Assembly: GCA_963843795.1 (NCBI GenBank)
Contig: CAWJLW010000006.1
Span: forward strand, 1,674,001-1,738,000
DNA length: 64,000 nucleotides
Direction: 5' to 3'
DNA from: an uncultured bacterium
Lineage (GTDB): Bacteria > Armatimonadota > Abditibacteriia > Abditibacteriales > Abditibacteriaceae
Shown: piece after piece, positions 2 through 63,034 of the stretch
Position numbering within the stretch: position 1 is the first letter of the stretch
How the letters are laid out: each line of letters begins with the position of its first letter
The notes under the pieces: model-generated
Databases searched by the model: none
What the model was told of the DNA's origin: nothing
The model's input: the letters and a program-made list of their open reading frames with translations, nothing else
Program-made: the position numbers and the translations under genes

Positions 2-2182
2 ATCAACTCGGGCAGACGGGCTTGGGATGAGCGAGTCGAAAAGGGTCGCCAGTTCCGGCCAACCGTGCGAATTCAGAAAAAGGGGAACGTTCGTGCCGAT
101 GGGCGGCGTGGCACCGCGCAAAATTCTCCAGGCAGCACCATTGACATATACCGCGCACGCGTTTTCGTCGGTAATAATAATGACGTCTTCAATATTTTCG
201 ATGGACGCCAACATCTTGATATTCTGCTCGCTCATTACCGAATACGCCAAAGCCAGCTCGCGGTCGGCGGCTTCGATACGGCCTTGCAATTGTTCATGAA
301 AAGCTACATTTTCCAAAGCCAGAGCGGTCTGTGCTGCCAAATTTTCCAGTAAAATCGCTTCTCGCGGGCCAAATATGCGACCATTGCGCTGTCCCAAAGC
401 TACAAAAACCTCGCCGCTCGCCACGTTTTGATTTTCACCTTCATCGGCTTGCATCAAAGGCGCTGCTACCAAAGTACGCGATAACGGGAGCGAGCCACGG
501 CTGCTGCGCATTTGCTGGAAAAGGTGCGCGCATATTTCATGCAAATCTGCGTGTTCGCTTATGACCTGGAATCCGTGGCGCTCAGAACTGCGCTCATGTT
601 TGTTTAGGTGCGTACGCTGAGGTTGAATCTGGCGCACGCGCTGCCACATCTCACTGGGACGTTCGTCGCTTTCGACAATGGCCGCGGGCCATAAAATCGC
701 GCGTTGCTCGCGCATAACGGCATTGGCTAATTCGGCGCGCAGGGTCTCATCCGTCGCCAACTTATCCGACACGGGTGGGGTGCAAGTACTTGCGGTTACG
801 ATCCACACATATTGAGCATCCAAGACTTCGCGCGCAGTCTGCAACGCGACCTGTCGCAAGCGCTGGCGGTCGTAACCAGCTGCGATAAGCGCGCCTCCCG
901 CCAGCGTGGTCATCGCGCTATCGGCACGCCAACTGGCTTCCCACGAACGTCGATAGTTATAAGACATCACCACCGCATAAGTGAGAATAACTCCAGCCAA
1001 CGGTTCCATTAGCGGCAAATAAGTATCAATAAATGTCAGCAGCAAAACCGCCGTTAACATCCAACTCGCGGCGAGCGCCAGTGCCCAAAGCGTCCCGCTG
1101 CGCGCCTGTCGCGGTGCCACCAGAGCTCCAGTTGCCAGGCACACCAAAACCAGCAAGGCTGGCGCGCTCCAATCGGGAGCGATGTGCAAAGGCCGATTTT
1201 GTAAAATATCGTTGGCGGCGTTGGCTTGAAGCTCGATAGCGGGTTGGGCTGACGAAAAAGGCGTAGAGCGAAATTCATACGCGCCCGCTGCCACAATGCC
1301 CACGAAAACCATGCGATTTTTCAGTTGCGCGCGCCCCACTCGACCATCCAAAACGTCCTGATAAGTAAAAGTCGGAAAAGTTCGGTAACTACCGGACCAG
1401 TTGATCCAACTTTCTCCTTCATTATCGATGGGAACACGCCGCACGCCGATGTCTATAAATTGATCATGCGCGCTAATTTCTTGCGGCGCAATGCCCAGCC
1501 AGTGCGCCGAGGCCGCCAAAGCCAACGAAGGAAAAACGCGGTCGCGATAACGAATCAGGTGCGGTATGCGCAGAAGCGAACCGTCGCTTTCGGGAAAAAT
1601 ATTAAGATGGCCAATGGAAGCAGCGCTCTGACTGAGTGCTGACCACGAAGAACTAACCCACACCGCGCTTTGAGCACGAACATTGTGTGAAGAAACCGCA
1701 AAACGATTGGGTAACGTAAACACATTGGCACGCGTGCTGGCCGGGACTTGCGCGGCAGAAATCGAGGGCACGATGAACGCTGCCGCTTGCACGACGTTAT
1801 TGGCACGGCGCGATAGCTTGGCCAGAAGTTCATCGTCGGCCAGAGAAGGCGATGGCTCGGAAAATAAAATGTCGAAAGCGACAGTTTTGGCGCCCTGCTC
1901 TACCAATCGTTGCAGAACACGAGCATGAAGCGAGCGCGGGAGAGGCCAACTTTTGGCGCGTGTCACGGTCGCATCATCGGCCACGATAATTACAATGTTA
2001 GGGTCGGGAAATCGTGGGCCACGCACACGAAACATCCAACCCAGCGTGCTCCGATTGGACTTATCCAACCAGCCCAATCCGCTAACCGTCTGCAAAAACA
2101 GCGCGCACAGAGCGCCCAATAAAGCGCCACGCCACACACGAGGTGTTGCCCACGACCAGCGCATTCGTCGCAAAAATCCCAT
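2..2182 (-). CDS. CHASE2-domain membrane sensor with downstream GAF/PAS-like regions, probably a sensor kinase; 3' end runs off the window
   Basis: Translated by hand; absent from the ORF track because no stop lies in the window. ATG 2182 MGFLRRMRW.., then FRVRGPRFPDPNIVIIVADD..WPLPRSLHARVLQRLVEQGAKTVAFDILFSEPS (CHASE2 signature). Near the window edge IENIEDVIIITDENACAVYVNGAA (PAS-like). Only parts of the ORF were translated. Confidence 0.8.
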   Translation of the reverse strand, partial: MGFLRRMRWSWATPRVWRGALLGALCALFLQTVSGLGWLDKSNRSTLGWMFRVRGPRFPDPNIVIIVADDATVTRAKSWPLPRSLHARVLQRLVEQGAKTVAFDILFSEPSPSLADDELLAKLSRRANNVVQAAAFIVPSISAAQVPASTRANVFTLPNRFAVSSHNVRAQSAVWVSSSWSALSQSAASIGHLNIFPESDGSLLRIPHLIRYRDRVFPSLALAASAHWLGIAPQEISAHDQFIDIGVRRVPIDNEGESWINWSGSYRTFPTFTYQDVLDGRVGRAQLKNRMVFVGIVAAGAYEFRSTPFSSAQPAIELQANAANDILQNRPLHIAPDWSAPALLVLVCLATGALVAPRQARSGTLWALALAASWMLTAVLLLTFIDTYLPLMEPLAGVILTYAVVMSYNYRRSWEASWRADSAMTTLAGGALIAAGYDRQRLRQVALQTAREVLDAQYVWIVTASTCTPPVSDKLATDETLRAELANAVMREQRAILWPAAIVESDERPSEMWQRVRQIQPQRTHLNKHERSSERHGFQVISEHADLHEICAHLFQQMRSSRGSLPLSRTLVAAPLMQADEGENQNVASGEVFVALGQRNGRIFGPREAILLENLAAQTALALENVAFHEQLQGRIEAADRELALAYSVMSEQNIKMLASIENIEDVIIITDENACAVYVNGAAWRILRGATPPIGTNVPLFLNSHGWPELATLFDSLIPSPSARVD

Positions 2183-2244
2183 GTGAAATCGGTATGTAGC
2201 GCTGCAAGTACTTGCAAAAGCTCTGATAGAGGTGCTTTCCGGCT

Positions 2245-3222
2245 TTAAAGCAGACCGCCCAGCAAACCACCCAAACCATTGAGCAAAGTGATTCCGCCAT
2301 CAAGCACACCACCTAAAATTGTCGCGTTTTGCCCTTGGATGGCGCGTCCTGTATCACGGGTTGTCGAGACATACAATTTGCTATTGCTGAGTAGATGCAC
2401 AGTAGCATCTCCGTTATTGACTACATTGATCCAGAACTCCGTGCCGCGCGCACCCACTGTAGCCGTCGGTGTTGAGACATCGAATTTGGAGCCGTGATGC
2501 ACATGATACCAGACTTCGCCCAAATTCTGGCGCACCAAAGAATACAACGGCGCGCTGCCGTTGCCTTCAAGAAACGATTGCAAAACCGTCAGATCGCTGC
2601 CTGGCTTGAGATTACAGACCGTACCGTCGGCAAAGGTGATAACAGCGCCGCCCTGAGTGCGCACTCGATCACCACCGTGAAGCTCCATGCCCTGTATGGC
2701 TTGCAATTCTTCACTGCCATCGGGATGAGTTACAAAAGTGGCATTAGCTCCGCTGAGCGTGGCGGGCGAAGTGGTGAACTGGCGTGTGTAACGCGCGTTG
2801 TAGGCCTGACTGCCACCGTTTATTTGTTCATGGTGCGGACACAAAACTAAGGGCACTTCGCCCATCGCTGTCGCTTCGCGCGGTGCGCGCAACACATAAC
2901 CATCTTGATAAGAACCATCTGCTCGCGTTTCTTCGGGACAACGCAGTGCAGACGCACTTTGCAAGTACTTGCGTGTCACTAATTCTGATAATCGAGTCGG
3001 ATAACGATGATTTTCCTGACGAAACGCATCTAAAGCCAGCGCAACATTTTTAAGTTTGGTGTCACACGAAGCATGGCGCGCCTGAGCGCGCATCCGACCG
3101 ATGTAGCCCATACTCAGCGCGGCAACCATGGAGATAATGGCGACAGCAATGACAACTTCAACCAAAGTAAACGCATTCAATTTGCTGTTTTGCCAAGGCT
3201 TGCGATTTTTTATTCGTCCCAT
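2245..3222 (-). CDS. Prepilin-type N-terminal (GspG-like) protein with a C-terminal FecR domain
   Basis: AFTLVEVVIAVAII class III signal; ALDAFRQENHRYPTRLSELV pseudopilin helix; GDRVRT..ITFADGT..FDVSTPTATVGARGTEFWI FecR motif. Confidence 0.75.
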   Translation of the reverse strand: MGRIKNRKPWQNSKLNAFTLVEVVIAVAIISMVAALSMGYIGRMRAQARHASCDTKLKNVALALDAFRQENHRYPTRLSELVTRKYLQSASALRCPEETRADGSYQDGYVLRAPREATAMGEVPLVLCPHHEQINGGSQAYNARYTRQFTTSPATLSGANATFVTHPDGSEELQAIQGMELHGGDRVRTQGGAVITFADGTVCNLKPGSDLTVLQSFLEGNGSAPLYSLVRQNLGEVWYHVHHGSKFDVSTPTATVGARGTEFWINVVNNGDATVHLLSNSKLYVSTTRDTGRAIQGQNATILGGVLDGGITLLNGLGGLLGGLL

Positions 3223-5411: not shown

Positions 5412-6329
5412 TTAAATATCGCTGGCATCGACATCATTGGTGGCAGACGGGACTTCGAGCGATTGTTTGCCGCGCTGCAATGGTACGCTGCGGATCTGTA
5501 AATGCTCTGCAAGTACTTTCAGCGTGTTGGGCGCGGCTACCATGAGCGGAATACGTTCGGCGCGGCGCGTTCTTTCCGCAATCCACGCGCGCCCGTCCAG
5601 ATACTGTGCGATGCAACCGGCTTCTTGGCACAAACAAATGCCCGCTGCGACATCGTAAACCTGATGCCACATCGCCAGGCTGCTGCATACCACGCCGCGC
5701 GCCAGCAGCGTGAGATGATAAGCCAACGTGCCGAAATTGCGCAAACGGCATGGCACACCGACGAAATCAATCGCTTCTTCAACTGACGTATTGCACGCGA
5801 TAAGGTCTTCCTGAATCAGAACTTCCGGGTCGCGCGCGCGCAAGGGAATCGCTTCGCCCGCGCCCGCCTGCCAGAACGCACCTTTTCCAGCACTTGCCCA
5901 CAGCATTTCGTTTTGTGGCGGAACTGAAACCACACCCAAAATCGCGCGCCCTTGATGCACAAGTCCAATCGAAACACACCAAAGGGGCACGCCGCGCACA
6001 AAGTTCGTCGTCCCATCAATCGGATCGATGACCCAGCACGGCGCGTCTTCGCTGCCGCCTTCGGGAACGACCAGACCACCTTCTTCGCCCAGAAAATTGT
6101 ACGTCGGCGCCAAGTCTTTCAAACGCTGACGTAACAAGTTTTCAATCGCGACATCGGCTTCGGTCACAAGCGTATTATCAACTTTGATTTGCGCCGCACA
6201 ACGTCCGCTCCATTCCAGCGCCAATTGCGACGCTTCGCGGGCAATGACGACAACCTGTGCGACATCAAGCTGTTGTTCTGAATTTTGGGCTGCGGTTGAT
6301 ATTTCTTGCGGCGATCTCACATCGTTCAT
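5412..6329 (-). CDS. Inositol monophosphatase family protein
   Basis: VTEAD, GEE, WVIDPIDGTTNF, YDVAAG; ATG 6329 chosen because it follows TACACT-N6. Confidence 0.9.
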   Translation of the reverse strand: MNDVRSPQEISTAAQNSEQQLDVAQVVVIAREASQLALEWSGRCAAQIKVDNTLVTEADVAIENLLRQRLKDLAPTYNFLGEEGGLVVPEGGSEDAPCWVIDPIDGTTNFVRGVPLWCVSIGLVHQGRAILGVVSVPPQNEMLWASAGKGAFWQAGAGEAIPLRARDPEVLIQEDLIACNTSVEEAIDFVGVPCRLRNFGTLAYHLTLLARGVVCSSLAMWHQVYDVAAGICLCQEAGCIAQYLDGRAWIAERTRRAERIPLMVAAPNTLKVLAEHLQIRSVPLQRGKQSLEVPSATNDVDASDI

Positions 6330-6387: not shown

Positions 6388-9036
6388 ATGTTTACTTTGC
6401 TGCGTCTGCTTTCATTTCGATACTGGCTGCGTCATCGCGGCGCGTTTGCGCTTTCAGCTCTGGGCGTAGCAATGGGCGTCGCAGTTTTCGTCGCCGTCCA
6501 AATCGCCAACTTCTCAGTTCTGTCAGCTTTCAACGCTTCACTCGAAGCGGTTTCGGGACGCGCCAATTTGCAAATCAGCGGCGGTGCGCGCGGTTTGCCC
6601 GAAAGCGTTTACAGCGAACTGATGACTAAGCCCGACGCGAGAATCCGTGCTGCTGCACCTTTGCTTGAACGCACACTTTTTTCGCCAACGCTCAAACTCA
6701 AACCCACTGATGAAGGCACCAGTTTGCTGGTACTGGGCATCGACCCATTCTCACAGGCCGCCTTTTTCGATCTCGATTTACGAAGCGCCGCTTCAATTTC
6801 TCAAAGTACTTCTGACGACAATCTTCAGCGCGGCGATAATGCCAATCCCGTTTGGGATTTTTTACTCGACCCGCACGCGATGGCGATTAGCCAAGAGTTA
6901 GCGCGGCGCTACAAGTTGCAAGTCGGCAGCCGCATCGAGTTGTTTGTGGGTGCACAGCGGAAAAATTTTCGCGTTGCGGCTATCGTCGGAAATCGCAGCC
7001 TGAATTCGGCTTTCGGCGGTGATTTTGTGCTTTTGGACATTGCGACCGCGCAAGAAGCGTTCGACGAATTGGGCCGGCTTTCGCAAATTGACTTGATTGT
7101 GCCAGAAAATCAGGTCGATGAAGTCGCGAACAGTTTGCGTGCGCGCATCGGAAAATCTTTGCCGCCCGATGCGCGCGTGGAACGACCGGCGCAGCGCTCG
7201 CAGCAAGTCGGCCAAATGCTTTCGGCGTTTCAACTCACGTTGTCGGCTTTGAGCTGCATCACACTTTTTGTGGGCGCGTTTCTGATCTACAACACGGTCG
7301 CAGTCGCAGTCGTGCGGCGCCGCGCCGAAGCGGGAATTTTGCGAGCAGTTGGTGTAGAACCTCAAAGATTAACGCGCTTGTTTTCCATAGAAGCGGCTTT
7401 GATCGGCGCATTCGGTTCGCTGTTGGGAATTGGACTGGGCTGGGTTTTGGCGCGCTACACACTGCACGAAGTCAGTCGCACGGTTTCCACGCTTTACGTC
7501 GCGGTTAAGGCACGCGAAATTGTGATGCCGAACTGGCTCCCGCCAACGGCTTTAATTGGCGGAACGATTTTATCGATTTTGGCTTCGCTGCCCGCCGCAT
7601 ATGAAGCCGGCCACGTGGCGCCGCGACAAGCTTTGAGCCGCACTTCGGTTCATCAAAGCACCGCACAGTTCGCGCGCCCGTTGGCAATTTATGGCCTTGT
7701 TATCGTAATTCTTGGTCTTGGCTTGTGCCATCCAATTATCAGCGCGCGTGCAGCATGGATCGGTTTTATCGCTACGACGTGCACGCTGGGCGGTTTCGCG
7801 ATGACTGCGCCGTTTCTGGTGCAAATCGGCGGGCGCGGGCTGCAAAACATGGGACACAATAGCGCGTTCGGGCCGCTTTGGTTGCTGGCCGGAGTTTATT
7901 TGCAGCGCGCGATTCATCGCAGTGGCTTGATAGTCGCTGCGTTGATGGTTTCGCTGGCGATGGCAGTTGGGCTGGGTGTGATGGTCGGTAGTTTTCGCGC
8001 AACAGTTGTGGATTGGGTCGACAACACGATTAGCGCCGATTTGTTTGTCGCTCCAGCACGCGGATTTTCGGGCGAAAGTGGGCCGGGATTGCCGCCGCAA
8101 GTACTTGCCTATGCCAAAAACCTGCCTAATTTGCGCGCTTTAGATACAATTCGCGGAGCACAAACCACAATCAGAAATCAGCCGGTGTTCATCGCCGCCA
8201 ACACCTTGCCGTCTTTGAAAATCGGCGAGCGCCGCATTCGATTCGTGCAAACGCGCAACGGCGTTCAAAACGCTTTGGACGATTTCGCCAATCAGCGCGC
8301 GATTTTAGTTTCCGAACGCTTCTCCAACCTGCTCGATATTCGCGCCGGTCAAAGCGTCCCATTGCTCACACCGCGCGGCCCGCGCTCGTATCCGGTCGCG
8401 GGCGTTTTTTACGATTACACGCCCAACCAAGCAGTCATTTATCTACCGCAGCCCTTGTATCAGCGCGACTGGAACGATTGGGGAACCGATGGCCTGGCAC
8501 TTTATTTCGCTTCGGGAACCGATATCGATGTAATTGAACGCGGCTTTGCGCAAAAATTTGGACGCGAATTTCAATTGACACTTTTGCCCAACCAGAAAAT
8601 TCGCCGTCAGGTTTTCCAAACTTTCGACGACACTTTTGCTGTAACCTACGCGCTGCAGCTCATTGCCGTCATCGTGGCTGCGGTCGGCATTTTCGACACA
8701 CTTCTCGCCTTGTTACTGGAACGCAAGCGCGAACTGGCGATGCTGCGCGCTGTCGGAGCTTCGCGCGCGCAAATTCAATTTCTCACGCTGCTCGAATTCG
8801 TCTCTATCGGCATTTTATCGTGGCTGCTTTCGCTGGTCGCGGGAACCGTGTTGGCATGGCAGCTAATTTTCGTCATCAATAAACAATTTTTCGGCTGGAG
8901 CATTCAACCTTCGCTTTCGCCCGTTATCTTTTTGCAGGCGCTGCTGTTGGCGTTGACCGCCGCTTTAGGCGCGGGCATTTTGCCTTCGCTGCGCGCTTCA
9001 CGCGCTGATATTTCCGGCGCACTGCAAACCGAATAA
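6388..9036 (+). CDS. ABC transporter permease, duplicated MacB/FtsX-like (AttFG-type)
   Basis: Two MacB periplasmic+FtsX repeats (RRRAEAGILRAVG; ERKRELAMLRAVGAS), 882 aa. Confidence 0.9.
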   Translation: MFTLLRLLSFRYWLRHRGAFALSALGVAMGVAVFVAVQIANFSVLSAFNASLEAVSGRANLQISGGARGLPESVYSELMTKPDARIRAAAPLLERTLFSPTLKLKPTDEGTSLLVLGIDPFSQAAFFDLDLRSAASISQSTSDDNLQRGDNANPVWDFLLDPHAMAISQELARRYKLQVGSRIELFVGAQRKNFRVAAIVGNRSLNSAFGGDFVLLDIATAQEAFDELGRLSQIDLIVPENQVDEVANSLRARIGKSLPPDARVERPAQRSQQVGQMLSAFQLTLSALSCITLFVGAFLIYNTVAVAVVRRRAEAGILRAVGVEPQRLTRLFSIEAALIGAFGSLLGIGLGWVLARYTLHEVSRTVSTLYVAVKAREIVMPNWLPPTALIGGTILSILASLPAAYEAGHVAPRQALSRTSVHQSTAQFARPLAIYGLVIVILGLGLCHPIISARAAWIGFIATTCTLGGFAMTAPFLVQIGGRGLQNMGHNSAFGPLWLLAGVYLQRAIHRSGLIVAALMVSLAMAVGLGVMVGSFRATVVDWVDNTISADLFVAPARGFSGESGPGLPPQVLAYAKNLPNLRALDTIRGAQTTIRNQPVFIAANTLPSLKIGERRIRFVQTRNGVQNALDDFANQRAILVSERFSNLLDIRAGQSVPLLTPRGPRSYPVAGVFYDYTPNQAVIYLPQPLYQRDWNDWGTDGLALYFASGTDIDVIERGFAQKFGREFQLTLLPNQKIRRQVFQTFDDTFAVTYALQLIAVIVAAVGIFDTLLALLLERKRELAMLRAVGASRAQIQFLTLLEFVSIGILSWLLSLVAGTVLAWQLIFVINKQFFGWSIQPSLSPVIFLQALLLALTAALGAGILPSLRASRADISGALQTE

Positions 9037-10354: not shown

Positions 10355-11563
10355 ATGTCCGCACTTCGAGCAATACCCACGGTTTTCATGACGCGCCTTC
10401 GCTCCATTTTTACCTGCTTCACAGTTGCCAGCGTAACTTCAGGTGCAAGGACTTGCAGCGCGCAAAATGCCAATATTACCTCGCCGCAAAGATTGCAGTT
10501 TCGTCTTGCCCTACCCGGCTACAAATTTCAGTTTCCGCGCGATCACGGTTCACACCCTGAATTTCGCACCGAATGGTGGTATTACACCGGACATCTGCGC
10601 GACAAAACTCAGCGTCGTTTCGGCTATCAGCTCACTTTTTTTCGCACTGCACTCGCCCCAGAAATTCTGAAGCGCAGTTCAAAATGGGCATCGCGTGACG
10701 TGATGTTCGCTCATTTCGCTCTCACTGATGAACGGGGCCAGCGATTCTTCACTGATGACCGTATCAGTCGTAAAGCTCTGGGTTTGGCCGGTGCCGAAAT
10801 TGCGACTTCAAAACCACCGCGCATCTGGCTTGGAGATTGGAATATACAGTTTACGGGCAAACGTGGACAAAGCCAAGCGATTCGGGCTCAAGGTCGCGCG
10901 CGCAACCAAAACGACGCGATTTTCGCGATTGATTTGAAGCACAGCGCAGTTCACGGTCCGATTGAACACGGACAAAATGGCGTTTCGCAAAAATCGTCGG
11001 GCGTTGGGCGCGCATCACATTACTACAGTTTCACGCGCTTAAATTCCGTGGGCAAAGTCACGATTGGCAACCAAAATTTTTCGGTTGAAGGCCAGAGCTG
11101 GTTCGACCACGAATTTGGCTCGAGCCAACTATCGAGCCAGCAAACCGGCTGGGATTGGTTCTCACTACAACTCAGCGATGGCCGCGATTTAATGCTGTAT
11201 CAACTGCGTTTGCAAGACGGTCAAACCGACCCATTTTCTTCTGGCACTATCATTTCCTCCGACGGCAAAGCGCGCCATCTGAAGCGCAGCGATTTTTCGA
11301 TTGGAGTTTTGAACAATTGGCGCAGTCCCCATACTAATGGCGTTTATCCCGCGCAGTGGCGCGTGAAGGTGCCACGCGAAAAAATCTCTCTGACAATCAC
11401 GCCTACTCTTCCCGATCAGGAATTAAATACCAGCCGATCGACTGGTATTTCCTACTGGGAAGGTTTGGTAAATGCGACAGGAAGTAGCCAAAAAGGTGCA
11501 GTTACTGCACTGGGCTACGTCGAACTAACCGGCTACGATAAGCGATTTAAAGGCACATTTTAA
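10355..11563 (+). CDS. AttH/CrtC-like lipocalin-domain protein (start may be 10388)
   Basis: FPRDHGSHPEFRTEWWYYTG, SWFDHEF, GWDWFSLQL, YWEG, GYVELTGY. Confidence 0.9.
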   Translation: MSALRAIPTVFMTRLRSIFTCFTVASVTSGARTCSAQNANITSPQRLQFRLALPGYKFQFPRDHGSHPEFRTEWWYYTGHLRDKTQRRFGYQLTFFRTALAPEILKRSSKWASRDVMFAHFALTDERGQRFFTDDRISRKALGLAGAEIATSKPPRIWLGDWNIQFTGKRGQSQAIRAQGRARNQNDAIFAIDLKHSAVHGPIEHGQNGVSQKSSGVGRASHYYSFTRLNSVGKVTIGNQNFSVEGQSWFDHEFGSSQLSSQQTGWDWFSLQLSDGRDLMLYQLRLQDGQTDPFSSGTIISSDGKARHLKRSDFSIGVLNNWRSPHTNGVYPAQWRVKVPREKISLTITPTLPDQELNTSRSTGISYWEGLVNATGSSQKGAVTALGYVELTGYDKRFKGTF

Positions 11564-11572: not shown

Positions 11573-11610
11573 CAAAAAGCGTTTGGCAAGTACTTGCCAA
11601 ACGCTTTTTG
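11573..11610. terminator. 38-bp perfect palindromic terminator centred on GCAAGTACTTGC
   Basis: CAAAAAGCGTTTGGCAAGT|ACTTGCCAAACGCTTTTTG just after the stop at 11563. Confidence 0.8.
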
Positions 11611-11881: not shown

Positions 11882-11908
11882 TATCGGGCTGCAAGTGCTT
11901 GCAAAGCT

Positions 11909-12976: not shown

Positions 12977-13324
12977 AATATTTATCTCCTGTGCGATAAT
13001 TTTATTTTCACGACGTTGTTCCATACATTTGTTGTACAATGCAATGTTTTGCAATCGTGAGGTATTATCGCTCTCATGTTGAGTTTCGACGGTGGGTCTC
13101 GCAAATTGTTCGCCGGATTTATTTTTTCTTTGAAAATTGCCAGTTTTCAACGTCAAACGTTCTGCAAGTACTTGCGACGCGAATTTTCAAATTCAATTAG
13201 CCAATCCAATGTGAAGAAAGAATTGATTGCTACAACTCCTAATTGTTCGCACTATTCCACACCACAACCCCATTCGCGAATTGTTAATCTTTAATCATCC
13301 AACGCCTTGATTTGAATTTATTTT

Positions 13325-14062: not shown

Positions 14063-14673
14063 AACATTTCATCGTCGCACTGACCGGCGCTTCGGGCCAT
14101 GGTTATGCTCTGCGCTTGTTGCACAAATTGTTGCGCACCGATTGCCAAATCGAAATTACAGTTTCCGAAGCCGGCTGCGTCGCACTAGGCGTCGAAACTG
14201 ACGTGAAGCTTAAAGCCAATGCGATTGATGTCGGGAAACTTATCGCTGCTGCGGGTTTAAACCCGACTCCGCAATTACTTAAGCGCGTCACAGTTTCCAG
14301 TCCGCGCGATATTGGTGCGCCAATGGCCTCAGGTTCTAACCGCCACGATGGTATGGTTGTCGTGCCGTGTTCGATGGGCACTTTGGCGCGAATTGCCAAT
14401 GGTTTGGCCAATGATTTAATTGCGCGCAGCGCCGATGTCGCGATCAAAGAACGCAGACGTTTGATTTTAGTGACGCGCGAAATGCCGCTTTCCCTGATCC
14501 ATCTGCGCAATATGCAGCAAGCGACCGAAGCGGGCGCGATTGTGATGCACGCCTGTCCGCACTTTTATCATCGCCCGCAAACCGTTGAAGAAGTTTTAGA
14601 TACCGTCGTTGACCGCGTTTTGGATCATCTCGAAGTTCCAGTCGATACGCGGCGCTGGAAAGAAGATAATTAA
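14059..14673 (+). CDS. ubiX: Flavin prenyltransferase UbiX
   Basis: ALTGASG, ASGS, PCSMGTLARIANG, REMPLS. Confidence 0.93.
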   Translation: MKHFIVALTGASGHGYALRLLHKLLRTDCQIEITVSEAGCVALGVETDVKLKANAIDVGKLIAAAGLNPTPQLLKRVTVSSPRDIGAPMASGSNRHDGMVVVPCSMGTLARIANGLANDLIARSADVAIKERRRLILVTREMPLSLIHLRNMQQATEAGAIVMHACPHFYHRPQTVEEVLDTVVDRVLDHLEVPVDTRRWKEDN

Positions 14674-14701
14674 TGCCCTGCAAGTACTTGCAGGGCATTA
14701 A
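14670..14701. repeat. 32-bp perfect palindrome centred on the motif, between ubiX and ubiA
   Basis: TTAATGCCCTGCAAGT|ACTTGCAGGGCATTAA, overlapping the ubiX stop. Confidence 0.9.
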
Positions 14702-14725: not shown

Positions 14726-15619
14726 ATGAACACTTTGAATGCGACCTCGAAAACTACGACAAAAGTGCGCGATTATTTTGAATTGGTCAAGTTCAGTCAC
14801 ACGGTTTTCGCGCTGCCGTTTGCGCTGGGCGCGATGCTGATTGCTGCGCACGGTTTGCCCGCATGGTCGAAAATCGGCTGGATTTTATGCGCAATGATCG
14901 GTGCGCGCACGTCAGCGATGGGCTTTAATCGCATTGTTGACCGCGACATCGACGCGCGCAATCCACGCACGCAAAACCGTGAACTTCCGGCTGGCAAAAT
15001 CTCGCTTTCGGGCGCATGGATTTTAGTCGTGCTCAGCGCTCTGCTCTTCGTTTTCGCCGCTCATCAATTAAACCTACTGGCTTTCGTGCTATCGTTCCCC
15101 ACCCTTGCCTTGTTGTTCGCTTATTCGTGGTGCAAACGCTTCACTTCGCTGTCGCATTTCGTTTTGGGATTGTGTTTAGGAATTGCACCTGCCGGCGCTT
15201 GGGTCGCGGTGCGCGACTACAATAGCATTTTTCAAATCGAAGCTGCACCGATTGTTTTGTGCATCGCGGTCATGCTATGGGTCGCTGGATTTGACGTGAT
15301 TTACGCCACGATGGACGATGAATTCGACCGCGAGCAACAACTGCATTCTCTGGTGCAACGTTTGGGAGTTCCGCGCGCGCTATCCGCCGCGCGCTGGCTT
15401 CACGCGGGCTTCATCGGATTGTTGGGATTGTTTGGCGTTCTGGCGCAGTTGGGCGCGATTTTCGGGATTGGCGTGCTGTTAATTGCGAGCTTTCTGGTTT
15501 ACGAGCATTCGCTGGTCAACCCACGCGATCTCAGGCGCGTCAATGCGGCCTTTTTCACAGTCAATGGCGCAATTAGCGCGCTATTTCTGGGTTTGGTTGT
15601 ACTGGATCTGTGGCTCTAA
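14726..15619 (+). CDS. ubiA: UbiA-family polyprenyltransferase (MqnP-like, futalosine-pathway type)
   Basis: KFSHTVFALPF, AMGFNRIVDRDIDARNPRT, GFDVIYA, VNAAFF. Confidence 0.88.
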   Translation: MNTLNATSKTTTKVRDYFELVKFSHTVFALPFALGAMLIAAHGLPAWSKIGWILCAMIGARTSAMGFNRIVDRDIDARNPRTQNRELPAGKISLSGAWILVVLSALLFVFAAHQLNLLAFVLSFPTLALLFAYSWCKRFTSLSHFVLGLCLGIAPAGAWVAVRDYNSIFQIEAAPIVLCIAVMLWVAGFDVIYATMDDEFDREQQLHSLVQRLGVPRALSAARWLHAGFIGLLGLFGVLAQLGAIFGIGVLLIASFLVYEHSLVNPRDLRRVNAAFFTVNGAISALFLGLVVLDLWL

Positions 15620-15659
15620 AACGGTTGCAAGTACTTGCAGGTCAATTCATCGAAGATTT

Positions 15660-16100
15660 TCAGTCGGCTGCGCGGGCGAGGTCCTCAATGGTTTGAAACA
15701 GTGAATCGAAATCGACCGGTTTGGTGAGCTGTACATCGTATCCGGCGACCTGAGCGCGCTCTTGTTCTTCGTCGGCGTCGTAGCCGCTGAGGGCGATAGA
15801 TTTGAACGGATGGAGCGAATTCATTTTGCGCAACGCACTCATCAATTCATAGCCGTTCATGCCGGGCATTCCGATATCAGAAACGATGACGTTGGGAGCG
15901 AAATCGGAAGCGACTTCGAGCGCTTCTGGGCCAGATAAGGCTTTAGCCACGCTATAGGCGCGACGGCTCATCATGAGTTCCATCATATCCAGCATGTCTT
16001 GATGGTCATCGACTAAAAGCACACGGACAGCGGCTTGCGTGGCTGTATCTACTGTTGCATCCATACGATTGTTGGCAGCGCCATTTGATGCAGAAATCAT
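15660..16100 (-). CDS. Single-domain response regulator
   Basis: VLLVDDH, SDIGMPGMNGY, IALSGY, TKP. Confidence 0.9.
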   Translation of the reverse strand: MISASNGAANNRMDATVDTATQAAVRVLLVDDHQDMLDMMELMMSRRAYSVAKALSGPEALEVASDFAPNVIVSDIGMPGMNGYELMSALRKMNSLHPFKSIALSGYDADEEQERAQVAGYDVQLTKPVDFDSLFQTIEDLARAAD

Positions 16101-16260
16101 GACTTTCCTCGCAAAACCGTTGTGTCAGACAAAAATTTGTGGAGAACAAACCACAGCAGTGAAAGGGTTAGCTTTAGTCTAACCGAAATGCTATATACCA
16201 CGCGAAGATCGAGCTTTGAGTATTTCAATTGCTTTCGCCGATTTTGGCACTTTTTCGGTT

Positions 16261-17133
16261 TTATCGCACAACTTCGTCGCCACGCAGCAATCGCAAAAGC
16301 GTATTTTCGAGCGAAATATCGGTGGCCACCAAACTATATCTCATGCCGTAACGAAGGCAGAACGTGCGCAAGCCGCCACAATGCTCGTCCAAATTTTGCT
16401 GATAGATTTTTAGCAGCGCACCTGACATCGATACTTCGCGTGTGGTTCCGTTTTCTACGTCCGTCAATTTCCAGTCGCCTGTCATTTGCGGTTCGAGTTC
16501 TTCGCGGTCGAGAATTTGAAGTGCGATAATTTCAAAGCCGCGCGCCGCTAAAATTTTCAAGCCATCTTCATAGCCTTCGGGCATCAGAAAATCAGATAAG
16601 ACAATTGCCAAACCGGGCCGTTGTGCGCGCAACGCGACGTTTTTGGCCACGCGAGTCCAATCGGTACTGCCATGGGAATTCAAATTTTCCATCCAGCGCA
16701 GTAAGCCCGGCACCGCGCTACGACTGCGACACGGCGGCAACGATTGCAAAATTTTCTCGTTGAAACTATGAGCGCTGATGCGGTCGTAATGCGTTAATCC
16801 GATGTAGCCCAACGCGCCGGCGATTTCGCGCGCGCGCTGCCATTTGGTGCCCTGATCGAAGCTCATCGAAGCCGAAGCATCGAGCAGCAGCGTGATGTCC
16901 AAATCTTCTTCTTCCATGAACATTTTGAGATACAATTTCTCAAATCGTCCATACGCGTTCCAATCGACGCGGCGCAAATCGTCGCCAAAATTATAGGCGC
17001 GAAAATCGGCGAACTCGACTGAAGAACCGCGTTTGGTCGAACGCTTTTCCCCTTTGGACGTGCCGGTAAAAGCGCGCCGCGCGTGCAAAGAAAGCGCATC
17101 GAGTTGGCGCAAAAGAGTGGGCGAAAGCAACAT
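16261..17133 (-). CDS. DUF58 domain protein (MoxR-associated, VWA-like)
   Basis: SVEFADFRAYNFGDDLRRVDW, LLDASASM, LSDFL. Confidence 0.9.
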   Translation of the reverse strand: MLLSPTLLRQLDALSLHARRAFTGTSKGEKRSTKRGSSVEFADFRAYNFGDDLRRVDWNAYGRFEKLYLKMFMEEEDLDITLLLDASASMSFDQGTKWQRAREIAGALGYIGLTHYDRISAHSFNEKILQSLPPCRSRSAVPGLLRWMENLNSHGSTDWTRVAKNVALRAQRPGLAIVLSDFLMPEGYEDGLKILAARGFEIIALQILDREELEPQMTGDWKLTDVENGTTREVSMSGALLKIYQQNLDEHCGGLRTFCLRYGMRYSLVATDISLENTLLRLLRGDEVVR

Positions 17134-17316
17134 AAGGAAAAGCGTCCTGCAAGTACTTGCGATGCCTGAAAGAAGGGTTCAGTTTATCGCACGCCACACA
17201 ATTCGCGAAAACTTGTCTTGCAGCGAGCCGCAAGTACTTGCAGTCAACGGCAGCACACAACAAATCCACACTTCTTTTGTCCGAAAAGCTGCTGTCAATA
17301 ATTGCACTCAACACTC

Positions 17317-19899: not shown

Positions 19900-20053
19900 G
19901 TTGTTCCTCAGCCAAAAGCGGCATTCATTATTTTCAAGCAAAAATTGGCTCGCAAGTACTTGCGGTGGCTTCTACGGTTCCAAATCAACGGAAAATTCAT
20001 TATCTTTCCTTGCCTTTACGTAATTACATTTATTTTGATAACCTGAAGGGACC

Positions 20054-22283: not shown

Positions 22284-22428
22284 ATTTTGCGCTGGCCGGT
22301 TCGCAACTGAATGCGTCGGTCACAGTCTCAAATACGGTTCAAAAACTAACGTTATCGGGCATGAGAGATCAGCGAGTTGCAGGCTTAATTGCACGCTGCA
22401 AGTACTTGCAGTTATAAATGGGAGAAAC

Positions 22429-23908: not shown

Positions 23909-23952
23909 AAGGCCAGTGGCGTGTGCAAGTACTTGCATACGCCACTGGCCTT
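23909..23952. terminator. Motif-centred hairpin terminator between convergent genes
   Basis: AAGGCCAGTGGCGTGTGCAAGT|ACTTGCATACGCCACTGGCCTT (one G-T pair), followed by T-rich sequence. Confidence 0.8.
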
Positions 23953-27287: not shown

Positions 27288-27317
27288 AATGCTCCTGCAA
27301 GTACTTGCAGGAGCATT
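27288..27317. repeat. 30-bp perfect palindrome centred on the motif, downstream of the DUF1559 gene
   Basis: AATGCTCCTGCAAGT|ACTTGCAGGAGCATT. Confidence 0.85.
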
Positions 27318-28239: not shown

Positions 28240-28437
28240 ACAATCACCCCCTGCTAGCCAACCAGGCCAGAAATGTTAAGAACTTTTAATATATAACCAA
28301 AAGCTTCGTTTCTCTAACATTTATTGCCTTTGTTTCACGGCATGGGAAACCGATTTCAAGATGTTGATTTCATATCAAAAGACTGTGAAAACTTCTCAGC
28401 CTCAACTTGCAAGTACTTGTAGATGTGCACTGGACAA

Positions 28438-28473: not shown

Positions 28474-28610
28474 CTATTTTTTGTCTTCTTTCAATCAGCG
28501 CTCACAATAAATGGGTTCGACACCAACCGTGATTTTTTGGTCGCGAAATGACCTTCAGATGTCTGCAAGGACTTGCAGAGCCTGTGGCAAACGCGCCTAA
28601 CTGTGAGCGT

Positions 28611-35128: not shown

Positions 35129-36004
35129 ATGAAAGGTATCGTTCTCGCCGGCGGCAGCGGCACTCGCCTCTACCCACTCACACAAGTCGTCTCCAAACAA
35201 TTGTTGCCCGTTTATGACAAGCCAATGATTTATTACCCGCTGTCAGCGCTTCTGCTGTCGGGAATGCGCGACATTTTATTGATTTCTACACCGCAGGATT
35301 TACCATTATTCGAGCGTTTACTTGGCGATGGTTCACAACTCGGCGTCAATTTTCAATATGCGGTGCAACCCGCGCCAGAAGGATTGGCGCAGGCATTTCA
35401 CATTGGACGCGATTTCGTTGATGGTGGGCCGGCGTGCCTGATTCTCGGCGACAACATCTTCTATGGTCAAGGTTTGCCCGACGACTTAACCGCCGCCGCT
35501 CAACGCGCGCAAACGCAAAGCGGGGCGACAGTTTTCGGCTACTGGGTCAAAGACCCGCAGCGTTATGGCGTGCTTGGTTTTGACGACAATAATCTGGTGA
35601 CTTCAATTGAAGAAAAGCCGGAGAAACCGCAATCGCATTATGCCGTTGTTGGACTATATTTTTATGATCGCGATATTACCGAAATCGCCGCCAACATCGC
35701 ACCCAGTGCGCGCGGCGAATTTGAGATTACCGATGTCAACCGCAAGTACTTGCAGCGCGGCGATTTGCAGGCGCAAATCATGGGACGCGGCACGGCGTGG
35801 CTCGACACCGGCACGCACGAATCGCTGATGGAAGCCGGTAATTTCATCGAAACCATTGAAAAACGTCAGGGCTTAAAAGTCGCGTGTCTGGAAGAAATCG
35901 CGTGGGAAATGGGCTACATTGACGCCGAACAAGTGCTGCGCTTGGCCGCAGGGCTGGGCAAAACTGAATACGCGCAATATTTGCGCGACCGCGTCAACGA
36001 ATAA
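35129..36004 (+). CDS. rfbA: Glucose-1-phosphate thymidylyltransferase
   Basis: [44 protein letters not shown]. Confidence 0.97.
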
Positions 36005-36071
36005 ATTCACACCGGGCTGCAAGTACTTGCAGCACTCACTTTGATTGCAGCACTCAATTCAGATTTATTTT

Positions 36072-36647: not shown

Positions 36648-36684
36648 CACTTACGCCCTGCAAGTACTTGCAGGGCGTTAGTGT
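36647..36684. terminator. Motif-centred hairpin after rfbC
   Basis: ACACTTACGCCCTGCAAGT|ACTTGCAGGGCGTTAGTGT (one mismatch), then TTT. Confidence 0.75.
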
Positions 36685-37629: not shown

Positions 37630-37736
37630 TTCTGAATTGAAACGTCCGTAATGCCACAGCGACGCGGCAAGTACTTGCAGCCCAAACCAGAGACAAAGCT
37701 CGCGCGTTGGGCGCGAGATTCCCCAAAGATTGCGCC

Positions 37737-40503: not shown

Positions 40504-40529
40504 GCGCGCTGCAAGTACTTGCAGCGCGC
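40504..40529. terminator. Motif-centred hairpin after sdhB
   Basis: GCGCGCTGCAAGT|ACTTGCAGCGCGC, then TCTTTT. Confidence 0.75.
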
Positions 40530-43774: not shown

Positions 43775-43889
43775 AGTTTCAGTGTATGATTTTGGGCGCT
43801 TTCCCACACGGAAATTTCGAAAGAGTGCGCTGCAAGTACTTGCGCGAAAAACTTATACTGCTCGAACCAATTACAAAAGGAAACAGAAT

Positions 43890-44927: not shown

Positions 44928-44974
44928 AAAGCGTGCTGCAAGTACTTGCTTGTTTAGGAAACGCAAAACCGAGG

Positions 44975-46215: not shown

Positions 46216-46512
46216 ATGAAATCTGACAAGACATTAAAACTGCGCACAGCGGTCACCGGAGCCAGCGCGACGGGTGCAAGTACTTGCGGCGCGCATGCGA
46301 CTGGCGCCGCAGCGTTGGGCGCGGTGGCTATCGGCGCTTTTGCTTTGGGCGCGATGTCGATTGGTGCGCTGGCGATTGGCGCGCTGGCAATCGGCAAGCT
46401 GAGCATCAAAAAAGCGCGTGTGAAAGATTTGCAAGTCGGCACGCTGGAAATTGATACGCTGCGCGTGCGTCATCTGGAAATCGAAAAATCGCCCGCAACT
46501 GCTAATAACTAA
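46216..46512 (+). CDS. Small Gly/Ala pentapeptide-periodic hypothetical protein
   Basis: GASAT-GASTC-GAHAT-GAAAL-GAVAI-GAFAL-GAMSI-GALAI-GALAI-GKLSI. Confidence 0.7.
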   Translation: MKSDKTLKLRTAVTGASATGASTCGAHATGAAALGAVAIGAFALGAMSIGALAIGALAIGKLSIKKARVKDLQVGTLEIDTLRVRHLEIEKSPATANN

Positions 46513-46515: not shown

Positions 46516-46553
46516 CAAAAAGCGCGTTGCAAGTACTTGCAACGCGCTTTTTG
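46516..46553. terminator. 38-bp perfect palindromic bidirectional terminator centred on the motif
   Basis: CAAAAAGCGCGTTGCAAGT|ACTTGCAACGCGCTTTTTG, filling nearly the whole gap between convergent stops. Confidence 0.85.
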
Positions 46554-49166: not shown

Positions 49167-49213
49167 CAAAGCGTCCTGCAAGTACTTGCGCAAGTAACTT
49201 GCGGGACGCTTTG
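49167..49213. repeat. Hairpin containing a tandem doublet of the motif
   Basis: CAAAGCGTCCT-GCAAGTACTTGC-GCAAGTAACTTGC-GGGACGCTTTG. Confidence 0.85.
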
Positions 49214-51183: not shown

Positions 51184-51213
51184 AAAGTCGCTGTAAGTAC
51201 TTGCAGCGACTTT
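51184..51213. terminator. Hairpin centred on a one-mismatch motif copy
   Basis: AAAGTCGCTGTAAGT|ACTTGCAGCGACTTT. Confidence 0.7.
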
Positions 51214-54918: not shown

Positions 54919-54952
54919 AAAAGCGCCCTGCAAGTACTTGCAGGGCGCTTTT
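54919..54952. terminator. 34-bp perfect palindromic terminator centred on the motif
   Basis: AAAAGCGCCCTGCAAGT|ACTTGCAGGGCGCTTTT. Confidence 0.8.
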
Positions 54953-55752: not shown

Positions 55753-55873
55753 AATCTTTAGTAGATAGAATTTGGCGGTAGAATGTGAACGTTGAAATTT
55801 GAGAGTTCGTTACGCCTTGCAAGTACTTGCAGCGCAAATTTTCTACCTTCCAGTCCCAAAAGTTATCTCCCGC

Positions 55874-57208: not shown

Positions 57209-57250
57209 AATTTTCTTGAATCTTTGCTGCAAGTACTTGCAGCGCCGATT

Positions 57251-57853: not shown

Positions 57854-57901
57854 CGTTCTGTTAAATGATCGCAGCAAGTACTTGCAGCATTCGTTCGGCG
57901 C

Positions 57902-59263
57902 TTAAAATTTCTCTGCAAGTACTTGCGGCGCGCGTTGTGCGGTTTGAATTACGAACTCGCCGAACAACGTGTTCGCCCACGCGAACCACGAGCGCGTAAA
58001 ATTGCTCGCGTCGTTGATATGAAACGTTTCGTGCATGAAACCCGTGCCCGCGTGCGTGGCGCGCAAAGTCGTGAGGCGCGCTCTGATTTCTTCGGGATCG
58101 TCGCTGGTCAGTCCGCTCATCGTCAGGCTCATCGGCCAAATCATTTCCGGGCCGAGATGCGGGCCGCCGATTCCGGCATATTTGCCCGCGAAATACCACG
58201 GATTCGACTCGCTCCACACGAAGCGCCGCGTGTTCTGATAAATCGCATCGTTGGCTTCCACCGCGCCCAAATACGGCAAACTCAACAAGCTCGGCACATT
58301 GGCGTCGTCCATCAATAAGACGCCGCCCAAACCGTCGATTTCGTACGCGTAGATTGTCCCAAATTCCGGATGTTGCTGCGTCGCGTGCTGTTGCAACGCG
58401 CTTTCGACTTCATCGGCCAACGCCGTGGCTTGCGCGGCCAACTGCGAATTGTCGCGCAATTTGTCGAGCAAAATCGCCATCTGCCGCAACGAAACTACGG
58501 CGAAGAAGTTGGAAGGAATCAAAAACTGATAAGTCGTTTCATCATCCGAAGGACGAAAACGCGAACAAATCAGGCCAATCGGTTTGACCGGCGCGCCATA
58601 AAGCTCGGGCGCGTTGGGAGCGGGCCGCGCGCCGCCGCGCTTGAATTCATAAGGGCCGAGATTGTCTTTGCGCTGCTGTTCGCGAAAGGTGCGAATCACG
58701 ATTTCCATCGCCGCTTCCCATTCAGCGTCAAAGGGCGAACTGTCGCCGGTTTGCTGCCAGTAAGCGAACGCCAGACGAATCGGATAACACAGCGAATCAA
58801 TTTCCCATTTGCGCTCGTGAATGCCCGGCTTCATCGCGGTGAAATCGCTTTCCCATTGCGTGTGCTGGCTTTCGTCTTTGAAAAACGCATTGGCATACGG
58901 ATCGAGATGAATGCAGTATGTCTGGCGACGAATCACGCCTTCAATCAGGCGCGCCAATTGTGGGTCGCCCTGCATCAAGGGCAAATAAGGCCACACCTGC
59001 GCCGAAGAATCGCGCAGCCACATCGCGTCAATGTCGCCCGTAATTACGTAAGTATCCGGCTTGCCAGCGCGCTCGCCGAAAAATACCGTCGTATCGAGCG
59101 TGTTGGGATAGCAATTTTCAAACAACCACCTCAATTCGGGATCGGCAATTTTTTCCTTGATTGTTTGAATAGTTTCTTCGACCGCAGTCGAAGAAAAGTT
59201 GCGCTCGGCGAGCGCTGGACGTTGTGAAACAAATTCTCTTGTATCTGAAGTATTGTCTTTCAT
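57902..59263 (-). CDS. GH125 exo-alpha-1,6-mannosidase family protein
   Basis: PNTLDTT, ITGDIDAMWLRDS, ERKWEIDS, FRPSDD, MDDANVPSLL, FTRSWFAWANTLF. Confidence 0.93.
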   Translation of the reverse strand: MKDNTSDTREFVSQRPALAERNFSSTAVEETIQTIKEKIADPELRWLFENCYPNTLDTTVFFGERAGKPDTYVITGDIDAMWLRDSSAQVWPYLPLMQGDPQLARLIEGVIRRQTYCIHLDPYANAFFKDESQHTQWESDFTAMKPGIHERKWEIDSLCYPIRLAFAYWQQTGDSSPFDAEWEAAMEIVIRTFREQQRKDNLGPYEFKRGGARPAPNAPELYGAPVKPIGLICSRFRPSDDETTYQFLIPSNFFAVVSLRQMAILLDKLRDNSQLAAQATALADEVESALQQHATQQHPEFGTIYAYEIDGLGGVLLMDDANVPSLLSLPYLGAVEANDAIYQNTRRFVWSESNPWYFAGKYAGIGGPHLGPEMIWPMSLTMSGLTSDDPEEIRARLTTLRATHAGTGFMHETFHINDASNFTRSWFAWANTLFGEFVIQTAQRAPQVLAEKF

Positions 59264-59288
59264 TGATAATTGATAAAAGTCTTGATGA

Positions 59289-60383: not shown

Positions 60384-60429
60384 ATTTCCAGTGTATCTAC
60401 TAAGCGCTGCAAGTACTTGCCCTGCTCTT

Positions 60430-61939: not shown

Positions 61940-61974
61940 TTAAGCATACGATTTGAACTATGAGGTGACCAAAG

Positions 61975-62994
61975 ATGAGCGGACGAATTGAGCAGGATTT
62001 TACGAGTGAGGACATGGCGTGGCTGTGGAATGCACGCGTGAATGGTGGCGGCAGTGCGCCACGTTCCAACGTGCGTTCGGGCACGATTCTACGCGCGATT
62101 TGTGCGCGTTACGATGAGAATCGAGAAGAAGCTCAGCGCGTTTTGACCGGTTTGCGTTGGGGTTTAATTCCGCGTACAACGAGCGCAGACGATGTGCGCG
62201 CGGGCCATCGATTGGTATGGGCGCGGCGTGAAACCTTAACGCAGCGCGCCTCGTTTCGCAATTCGTTGCGCGCGCGACGTTGCGTGGTTCCGGTCAATGG
62301 CTGGTTCGCTCGTGTGCGCGAAAATTTTTCGGATGACGCTGCCATCGAGCATCATTTATGGCTGCGTCCGCGCGATGGGCGAATGTGGTCGCTGGCCGGT
62401 TTGTGGGACGAATGGACGGACGAAAACGAACGCGTCCGACGCACCTGTGCTCTGGTTTCGACTGCGCCCAATGCGCGCCTGGAGCGTTTAGGCGTGCGGA
62501 TGCCCGCGATTTTGGACGAAAACGCGGCGCGCGTCTGGTTAGACGGACGCGAACACGGCGGCAAGTACTTGCAGACCTTAGCAAGCACCATTTCTTCGCG
62601 CGAATTAGACATTTCGGTGGTCGCGTCTCCGCGCTGGCGCGAGCAGGACGACGAAAGTTTGCTGGAAGCCGTGCCCGATTCGGACGAAATTATTCAACGT
62701 TTGGGCTTGGCACGCGAGCGCAAAGTTCCCCAGATGAGGCGACAATTGCGGCGCGATTGGCATTCGCCAGATGGTCAGGTTTTCTTCAAAATGCGCTCTT
62801 TAACGCGCGATGACGATACGCGCTGGCATCCGGTGGTTGACACCGGTGACGGCCGCGTGTTCTGCGATTGCCCCGATTTTCATTATCGCCACGCGCGCTT
62901 TCGACCCGATGTGTGGATGCCGCAGCATTGGTGCAAACACGTCGAGCGCGCGGTCAATAATTGTGTAAAACACGGCGATTTGATTGCAGCTTAA
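61975..62994 (+). CDS. SRAP (YedK/HMCES)-family domain lacking catalytic residues, fused to a SWIM-type zinc finger
   Basis: MSGR.., LRWGLIP, ARRETL..FR..RRCVVP, LAGLWDEW, RMPAIL; C-terminal CDCPDF..CKH; RBS GAGGTG. Confidence 0.82.
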   Translation: MSGRIEQDFTSEDMAWLWNARVNGGGSAPRSNVRSGTILRAICARYDENREEAQRVLTGLRWGLIPRTTSADDVRAGHRLVWARRETLTQRASFRNSLRARRCVVPVNGWFARVRENFSDDAAIEHHLWLRPRDGRMWSLAGLWDEWTDENERVRRTCALVSTAPNARLERLGVRMPAILDENAARVWLDGREHGGKYLQTLASTISSRELDISVVASPRWREQDDESLLEAVPDSDEIIQRLGLARERKVPQMRRQLRRDWHSPDGQVFFKMRSLTRDDDTRWHPVVDTGDGRVFCDCPDFHYRHARFRPDVWMPQHWCKHVERAVNNCVKHGDLIAA

Positions 62995-62998
62995 GGCG

Positions 62999-63034
62999 AA
63001 AAAGCATTGTGCAAGTACTTGCACAATGCTTTTT
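62999..63034. terminator. 36-bp perfect palindromic bidirectional terminator centred on the motif
   Basis: AAAAAGCATTGTGCAAGT|ACTTGCACAATGCTTTTT between convergent genes. Confidence 0.85.

Follow-up and report, generated by a model that had tools for sequence, protein, structure and literature searches.

A 12-bp palindrome iterated throughout an Abditibacteriaceae genome as a candidate DNA-uptake-type signal

What kind of process keeps a single 12-bp palindrome, GCAAGTACTTGC, scattered over a whole bacterial chromosome? The question is raised by a stretch of 64,000 nucleotides (the window; contig CAWJLW010000006.1, positions 1,674,001 to 1,738,000, of assembly GCA_963843795.1) from an uncultured soil member of the Abditibacteriaceae, in which a sequence-only reading had counted 35 exact copies and seven or more with one mismatch, about 27 of the exact ones lying between genes at every type of junction. 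Both counts were borne out: the word is matched 42 times, 35 times exactly and 7 times with a single mismatch (first at 782, last at 63011-63022), shuffled versions of the window giving a mean of 0.21 matches and a maximum of 2, and script-made gene calls put 27 of the exact copies at intergenic sites (17 at tandem, 6 at convergent and 4 at divergent junctions) and the other 8 within genes. The evidence presented here tips the balance, by a modest amount, towards a DNA-uptake-type signal working like the DNA uptake sequences (DUS) of Neisseria and the uptake signal sequences (USS) of Pasteurellaceae; the likeness would be one of function, and no membership of the DUS/USS or of the highly iterated palindrome 1 (HIP1) families is claimed.

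The genome containing the window (G000; 4.30 Mb, 92% complete) holds 2,567 exact and 506 one-mismatch copies, compared with 0.45 and about 10 expected under an order-4 Markov model with the motif masked, so that the enrichment holds genome-wide. Homologues of one of the proteins of G000 bear the source names Abditibacterium utsteinense and Abditibacteriaceae. With the motif left unmasked, models of order 6-10 predict 1,933-2,541 copies, a circular figure, because the motif itself trains those models. The word is the most frequent 12-mer of the genome, the runner-up among palindromic 12-mers reaching 33 copies, and 2,567 of the 3,241 AGTACT sites lie within its exact copies. Its density is 0.60/kb; 1,802 copies are intergenic, 752 intragenic (29%; 491, 145 and 116 in the three frames) and 13 at gene edges or contig ends, gene and junction classes being approximate because gene positions come from our own script, run on an assembly with frameshifts. 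An assembly or adapter artefact was considered and ruled out, since copies are in frame with codons and the word is present in independent assemblies; contigs of runs X1 and X2, from one study that is possibly the assembly's source, cross the copy at 18489 unchanged.

Along the main contig, copy density hardly changes between origin and terminus (240, 263, 251 and 266 copies per 400 kb over terminus, mid-arms and origin side). Organiser sites of the matS, SBS and parS type are confined to one chromosomal region; thus a regional chromosome organiser, one of the readers first envisaged, is a poor fit. Spacing is also evener than under two nulls, with 70 gaps longer than 4 kb, against 218 and 148 +/- 8, and 18 motif-free gaps longer than 6 kb, against 76 and 37. 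Five of the longest motif-free gaps, annotated by eye, correspond to insertion sequence (IS) clusters, a type I restriction-modification gene, a high-GC VirB-like block, a tail-like locus and plasmid-like genes; mapped against acquired islands, as had been suggested, the word is therefore missing from the mobile ones. Intragenic density declines with rising codon typicality, from 0.31-0.33 per kb to 0.11, so codon typicality is no test of foreignness, and no dense cluster of the motif that would mark a cognate gene was found. A contractile-tail-like locus without the motif occupies contig C3:1-32000, and a 63% GC VirB-like block, also without it, lies at C6:3590000-3623414 and may be foreign or mis-binned.

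Inside genes, the word overrides codon choice. At peptide-compatible in-frame sites the exact word is used in 732 of 825 cases where 4.6 are expected (by class, 111/128, 141/155 and 480/542, with 0.24, 3.4 and 0.9 expected), and peptides are affected as well: ASTC occurs 128 times against 3.7 for its permutations (35-fold), and QVLA is 13-fold above its permutations. Alignments of orthologues from seven sets of relatives are gap-free within 3 nt at 117 of 131 copies and gapped at 14, amino-acid identity being 0.22-0.48 at the motif and 0.61-0.65 in the background; the word thus appears to arise by substitution at permissive codons, mostly without indels. Once present, it tends to stay: two metagenomic relatives (64-66% protein identity, 63-67% GC), which carry a looser word at 1.1-1.2 AGTACT per kb, keep the position of AGTACT at 19/34 and 16/31 sites, where chance predicts 0.02-0.03, and identity at silent third positions is 0.75-0.77 inside the motif against 0.46-0.49 elsewhere.

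The surroundings of the copies are more structured than had been supposed. The sequence-only reading had denied a miniature inverted-repeat transposable element (MITE), an IS or an array on the ground that flanks differ between copies; a MITE or repetitive extragenic palindromic (REP) origin is indeed all but ruled out, but the flanks carry a soft consensus, palindromic arms and helical A/T phasing. Among 2,563 copies there are 2,060 distinct 24-mers. Arm length is bimodal, 477 of the 2,563 copies gaining at least 9 further perfect pairs (3 after arm shuffling); long arms are most frequent at convergent junctions (181 of 292 copies), and 565 of the 620 perfect palindromes of the genome with arms of at least 12 are centred on the word. 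About a fifth of the copies are thus the centres of terminator-like hairpins, a secondary use; when folded, four palindromes of the window give a stem followed by a U tail (z -5.3 to -7.9), compared with z -3.6 and +0.2 for two intragenic controls. In the two metagenomic relatives, just 4/295 and 3/330 copies form hairpins.

Copies without long arms, as well as intragenic ones, show A/T maxima at about 15, 26, 36 and 47 bp on either side of the dyad, with a period of 10.35-10.5 bp; the amplitude is 0.05-0.06 at a distance of 12-60 bp, falling to 0.015 at 60-110 bp, and eight control anchor sets give 0.003-0.017 at 12-60 bp. A-tracts recur periodically throughout the genome, with an amplitude of 0.007-0.012 even far from motifs, so the distant part of the flank phasing is no more than about twice background. 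An AA/TT periodicity of about 11.1 bp is strong across the whole of G000 and is shared with G009 and the G007 clade.

The proposed survey of relatives was run on 28 genomes of the order, G000 and 27 others, of which 7 carry a GTAC-core word, 3 a second word, CAGCCACG, and 18 no detected word. The consensus RAGTACTY occurs 2,695-4,371 times in G000, G001, G009, G012, G015 and G019, and 0-117 times in the remaining 22. Its forms are CAAAGTACTTTG in G001, TCGAGTACTCGA in G009, G015 and G019, and GAGTACTC in G012; G006 has a non-palindromic dialect, RAGTACGGTCGAA, with the GTAC core retained (1,473 forward and 1,508 reverse copies), bringing GTAC-core dialects to 6 of the 27 relatives. GTAC is kept by the dialects of all seven genomes, which span two related genera. 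The exact 12-mer is found 0-3 times per genome among 60 relatives, and RAGTACTY at most 354 times per genome among 137 genomes of other families in a sample of the phylum; a scan of genome contigs with an 18-mer gave at least 7 single matches, in unrelated genomes, among the matches listed, and a 16-mer scan of viral contigs 6 single matches. The word is therefore, as first proposed, a lineage-specific dispersed signal, a double-stranded word at the DNA level, rare in its exact form in relatives and present as variants in several of them. In genera g2 and g5 RAGTACTY is nearly missing (0-45 per genome), well under the control word.

Of 417 RAGTACGGTCGAA copies in G006, 288 stand in head-to-head pairs, in which the spacer is 4 nt and A/T tails are present. 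Unpaired copies are divided 72 to 57 between strands (p 0.22; one replichore, 420 kb of uniformly negative skew). Relative to genes, 47 copies are sense and 40 antisense, with no bias. The second word, CAGCCACG, numbers 2,676-3,503 copies in G007, G016 and G018 (loci L012, L090, L142, L089, L143 and L147), against about 300 for a control word; it is hyper-abundant, non-palindromic, present on both strands, in genes and in inverted pairs, lacks GTAC and is unrelated to the GTAC family. G016 carries it as a longer word in inverted pairs. No dispersed word was detected in the other 18 genomes, a weak result because just 4-147 kb were read from each. In a FastTree phylogeny of seven pilus genes from 20 genomes, the wordless G017 is nested in the clade of G006, G009, G012 and G015 (0.997), to which G000 is attached weakly (0.61), and the CAGCCACG genomes form a separate clade. 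Repeats in G013, G026, G005, G024, G025 and G022 were rejected as dispersed words, being clustered and REP-like or tandem; among them, CACAGAG-unit (G013, G026) and AACTCAA-unit (G005) intergenic repeats form clustered inverted arrays (L015, L113, L028, L108, L010, L087, L138).

An uptake-type signal is ranked first because, apart from a receptor and from the palindromic form of most dialects, the properties of DUS and USS are matched one by one and because the G006 dialect behaves like a textbook DUS. The comparison draws on the published descriptions (PMC3630211, PMC2817400, PMC12616744, 10.1101/2025.10.24.684340). DUS and USS have a comparable density and genic share (0.80-0.89/kb, 34.5-65% in genes; PMC2817400) and an evener than random spacing; they occur in both orientations, form terminator inverted pairs or hairpins, raise the frequency of certain tripeptides and fall on poorly conserved residues. 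As here, they are missing from foreign DNA, vary as dialects around a constant core and belong to organisms encoding a type IV pilus and Com genes; in addition, the USS has AT-rich, helically phased flanks (PMC12616744). According to this scheme, the word would be bound by a surface or periplasmic component of the competence machinery, with a minor or tip pilin the likeliest candidate, and word-bearing fragments with bendable A/T-phased flanks would be taken up and recombined more often. Biased gene conversion would write the word wherever it is tolerated and maintain it in the chromosome, and changes of the reader would shift the dialect. The G006 dialect indicates that symmetry is not essential to the signal; since it is non-palindromic with the same GTAC core, the dedicated dimeric reader first postulated is not required. 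More tentatively, and with rather less than even confidence, the uptake system of the Abditibacteriaceae may be self-specific and independently evolved, the third such system and the first to lie outside Proteobacteria and Cyanobacteria. Its reader would then be able to switch between palindromic and non-palindromic words, might have been exchanged altogether in the CAGCCACG clade, and would select, beyond the word itself, a bendable segment of 100-200 bp with the word at its centre.

Genes that might support such a system are present. Profile searches identified ComEC, ComEA, two PilT and secretins (eight secretin-family matches) in G000, and PilB/C/D/MNO, minor pilins, DprA, ComF and RecA were recognised by motif and by eye. 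In DUS and USS systems the sequence-specific receptor pilin is ComP or, by prediction, ComN/PpdA; the ComP profile PF16732 matched none of five genomes, and no control either. A tip pilin of 1,300 residues has no PDB or Pfam match; its model is poor (pLDDT 52.9), Foldseek returned nothing at E 0.001, and with VIA-align only an 80-residue beta-barrel of this poor model was matched, to unrelated proteins, with Z up to 9.5. Pilus-tip pilins of about 1,300 residues are encoded at L130:10270-14298 and 15290-19243, with tandem duplicates in G012, G017, G007 and G016, and the pilus operon of G006 lacks this pilin. The comEC gene is frameshifted in G017 and G014, both wordless, which may be a sequencing error.

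Several points weigh against the interpretation as an uptake signal. The search for a gene whose phyletic pattern follows the word, which had been recommended, yielded none: ComEA is matched in 26/28 genomes, PilT and ComEC in 28/28 each, and the minor-pilin operon is present in all 20 loci fetched, one of them partial, so these genes do not track the motif, wordless genomes having them too. No reader protein was found among the genes compared; an uptake role is thus inferred from genomic behaviour, and any other sequence-biased retention process would yield all the properties described. Natural transformation of Abditibacteriaceae is not reported in the literature searched. The flanks of G001 and G009 are moderately phased; in G012 and the two metagenomic relatives phasing is faint or lacking. 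Phylum and sequence differ from those of DUS and USS; where the known uptake sequences are described as non-palindromic (PMC2817400), most dialects here are palindromic, so that one copy replaces an inverted pair, and within the family only the G006 dialect and CAGCCACG lack symmetry. Phasing is two-sided and extends beyond 60 bp, longer than the roughly 30-bp USS. The same family holds a second, unrelated word, and no ComP match was obtained in a search without positive control.

Among the alternatives, the one that survives best, although we consider it unlikely, is a HIP1-like system, in which a methyltransferase would mark the GTAC core and methylation-dependent repair or transformation would build and keep the palindrome. 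HIP1, GCGATCGC, and the alternate HIPs (PMC4390886, PMC13756078, 10.1101/2024.09.10.611283) are likewise highly iterated palindromes without indels and at conserved positions, with alternate forms in relatives (PMC4390886) and an orphan methyltransferase in the lineage. Retention of GTAC by all seven dialects would fit such a mark, and the two explanations overlap, because HIP1 promotes transformation and this effect depends on methylation (10.1101/2024.09.10.611283). The single N4/N6 methyltransferase of G000 is a beta-class DPPY orphan (L042:1483-2253, minus strand), found as a single copy, with 56-75% identity and varying neighbourhoods, in 21/28 genomes: all 7 GTAC-core genomes, 2/3 with CAGCCACG and 12/18 without a detected word. 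Its presence in every GTAC-core genome is in favour of this alternative; as it also occurs in wordless genomes, it does not track the motif, and a methylation system as the reader, another of the initial suggestions, is left unsupported. Neither a C5 (PF00145) nor a Dam-type (PF02086) enzyme was found in the 92% complete G000. Moreover, mismatches do not spare the core (140 of the 506 at the 4 central positions and 366 at the 8 outer ones, or 35 against 46 per position), unlike the outer bias reported for HIP1; the word is 12 bp long and 50% GC, HIP1 6-8 bp and GC-rich; and 70% intergenic placement, terminator use, the non-palindromic G006 dialect and the absence of GTAC from the CAGCCACG clade are further differences.

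Somewhat less likely again is a chromosome-shaping protein (gyrase, a nucleoid protein or an SMC loader) that would wrap or bend DNA at a site selected at about one per gene. The dyad-symmetric A/T period and its excess over controls would suit such a protein, as would the even spacing of copies; indeed, the gyrase motif combines a dyad with flanks periodic at about one helical turn, in two 47-bp arms (PMC13284261), and GTAC taken as a 4-nt overhang fits the type IIA determinants -4G/+8C and -2A/+6T (PMC10117906), two of the three central ones. The word opposes the third, -1T/+5A, its dialects lose -4G, and unlike the gyrase motif it is a strict 12-bp consensus that varies by species. Copies without hairpins are not enriched downstream of convergent genes (1.56/kb, against 1.71 at divergent and 2.32 at tandem junctions), the general A-tract periodicity explains part of the long-range signal, and PF00808 found no histone fold in G000. 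Selection alone would have to account for residue changes in hundreds of genes and for a fast dialect turnover.

We regard as improbable a tag that marks self DNA inside the cell and serves recombination or protection from nucleases, either Chi-like or read by a defence system, to which the dispersal of the word, its absence from foreign DNA and its independence of gene orientation would correspond. Chi and KOPS are oriented with replication, and the non-palindromic G006 dialect shows no replichore polarity. Phased double-stranded flanks and inverted pairs would be superfluous for such a tag, and no single-domain GIY-YIG gene of the SsnA type was found in G000, where both matches are long proteins. 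A Chi-like action has been suggested for HIP1 (10.1101/2024.09.10.611283).

A mobile or REP-like repeat, or a mere terminator signature, is very improbable and already largely refuted by the codon, orthologue and metagenomic-relative data. For all the long perfect palindromes centred on the word and the long arms at convergent junctions, about four fifths of the copies lack long arms, intragenic copies occupy all three frames, hairpins are rare in the two metagenomic relatives, and the sole RAYT-like gene has on either side GTAG repeats that are unrelated to the word. Elements of the REP/RAYT and SsnA/NTS type (PMC11893778) are also palindromic, often intergenic and hairpin-forming in part; unlike them, the word occurs as single dispersed copies with differing flanks and no cognate transposase or SsnA adjacent, and 29% of it lies in genes, against 2% for NTS. 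The RAYT-like Y1 transposase gene, outside the window at G000:C6:751600-752500, has four GTAG-type REP hairpins around it.

The 12-mer was not found in the literature searched, which left most subscription papers and bioRxiv supplements outside; five dialect strings are matched in four unrelated papers, and topic searches gave no description for the Abditibacteriaceae lineage. Comparative genomics should be able to find the reader, because the family contains five or more GTAC-core dialects (one of them non-palindromic), a second word and sister genomes in which no word was detected. The dialects also make it possible to ask whether a single mechanism underlies the palindromic signals of the HIP type and the non-palindromic ones of the DUS type. 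The word would serve as a species barcode in binning and may be needed for genetics in the lineage.

Table 1. Copies of GCAAGTACTTGC in the window, with the palindromes that surround some of them
Positions	Feature	Basis
782-793	Exact copy, intragenic	Motif scan, gene calls
2204-2215	Exact copy, tandem junction	Motif scan, gene calls
2961-2972	Exact copy within pilin-FecR gene	Motif scan, gene calls
5509-5520	One-mismatch copy	Motif scan
8097-8108	Exact copy, intragenic	Motif scan, gene calls
10445-10456	One-mismatch copy	Motif scan
11573-11610	Perfect 38-bp palindrome with A/T tails, exact copy 11586-11597 central; convergent; predicted two-way terminator, z -7.6	
11891-11902	One-mismatch copy	Motif scan
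13164-13175	Exact copy, divergent junction	Motif scan, gene calls
14670-14701	Perfect 32-bp palindrome around exact copy 14680-14691; tandem junction	
15627-15638	Exact copy, convergent junction, without long arms	Motif scan, gene calls
17149-17160	Exact copy, divergent junction	Motif scan, gene calls
17230-17241	Exact copy, divergent junction	Motif scan, gene calls
18489-18500	Exact copy, intragenic; contigs of two public runs (one study) identical across it	
19952-19963	Exact copy, tandem junction	Motif scan, gene calls
22398-22409	Exact copy, tandem junction	Motif scan, gene calls
23925-23936	Exact copy, convergent junction	Motif scan, gene calls
27288-27317	Perfect 30-bp palindrome around exact copy 27297-27308; tandem junction	
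28409-28420	One-mismatch copy	Motif scan
28565-28576	One-mismatch copy	Motif scan
31497-31508	Exact copy, tandem junction	Motif scan, gene calls
32915-32926	Exact copy, tandem junction	Motif scan, gene calls
32943-32954	One-mismatch copy	Motif scan
35742-35753	Exact copy, intragenic	Motif scan, gene calls
36019-36030	Exact copy, tandem junction	Motif scan, gene calls
36660-36671	Exact copy, tandem junction, 7 further pairs of arm	Motif scan, gene calls
37667-37678	Exact copy, tandem junction	Motif scan, gene calls
40511-40522	Exact copy, tandem junction, 7 further pairs of arm	Motif scan, gene calls
43832-43843	Exact copy, divergent junction	Motif scan, gene calls
44938-44949	Exact copy, convergent junction	Motif scan, gene calls
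46276-46287	Exact copy within short gene	Motif scan, gene calls
46516-46553	Perfect 38-bp palindrome around exact copy 46529-46540; convergent; predicted terminator, z -6.1	
49178-49189	Exact copy, tandem junction	Motif scan, gene calls
51193-51204	One-mismatch copy	Motif scan
54919-54952	Perfect 34-bp palindrome around exact copy 54930-54941; tandem; predicted terminator, z -7.9	
55819-55830	Exact copy, tandem junction	Motif scan, gene calls
57229-57240	Exact copy, tandem junction / gene start	Motif scan, gene calls
57874-57885	Exact copy, tandem junction	Motif scan, gene calls
57915-57926	Exact copy, intragenic, close to gene 3' end	Motif scan, gene calls
60409-60420	Exact copy, tandem junction	Motif scan, gene calls
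62561-62572	Exact copy, intragenic	Motif scan, gene calls
62999-63034	Perfect 36-bp palindrome around exact copy 63011-63022; convergent; predicted terminator, z -5.3	

The window also encodes, at 2245-3222 on the minus strand, a protein that joins a type IV pilin-like part to a FecR domain and has a paralogue elsewhere in the genome; its gene adjoins one that, by eye, resembles a CHASE2 sensor.

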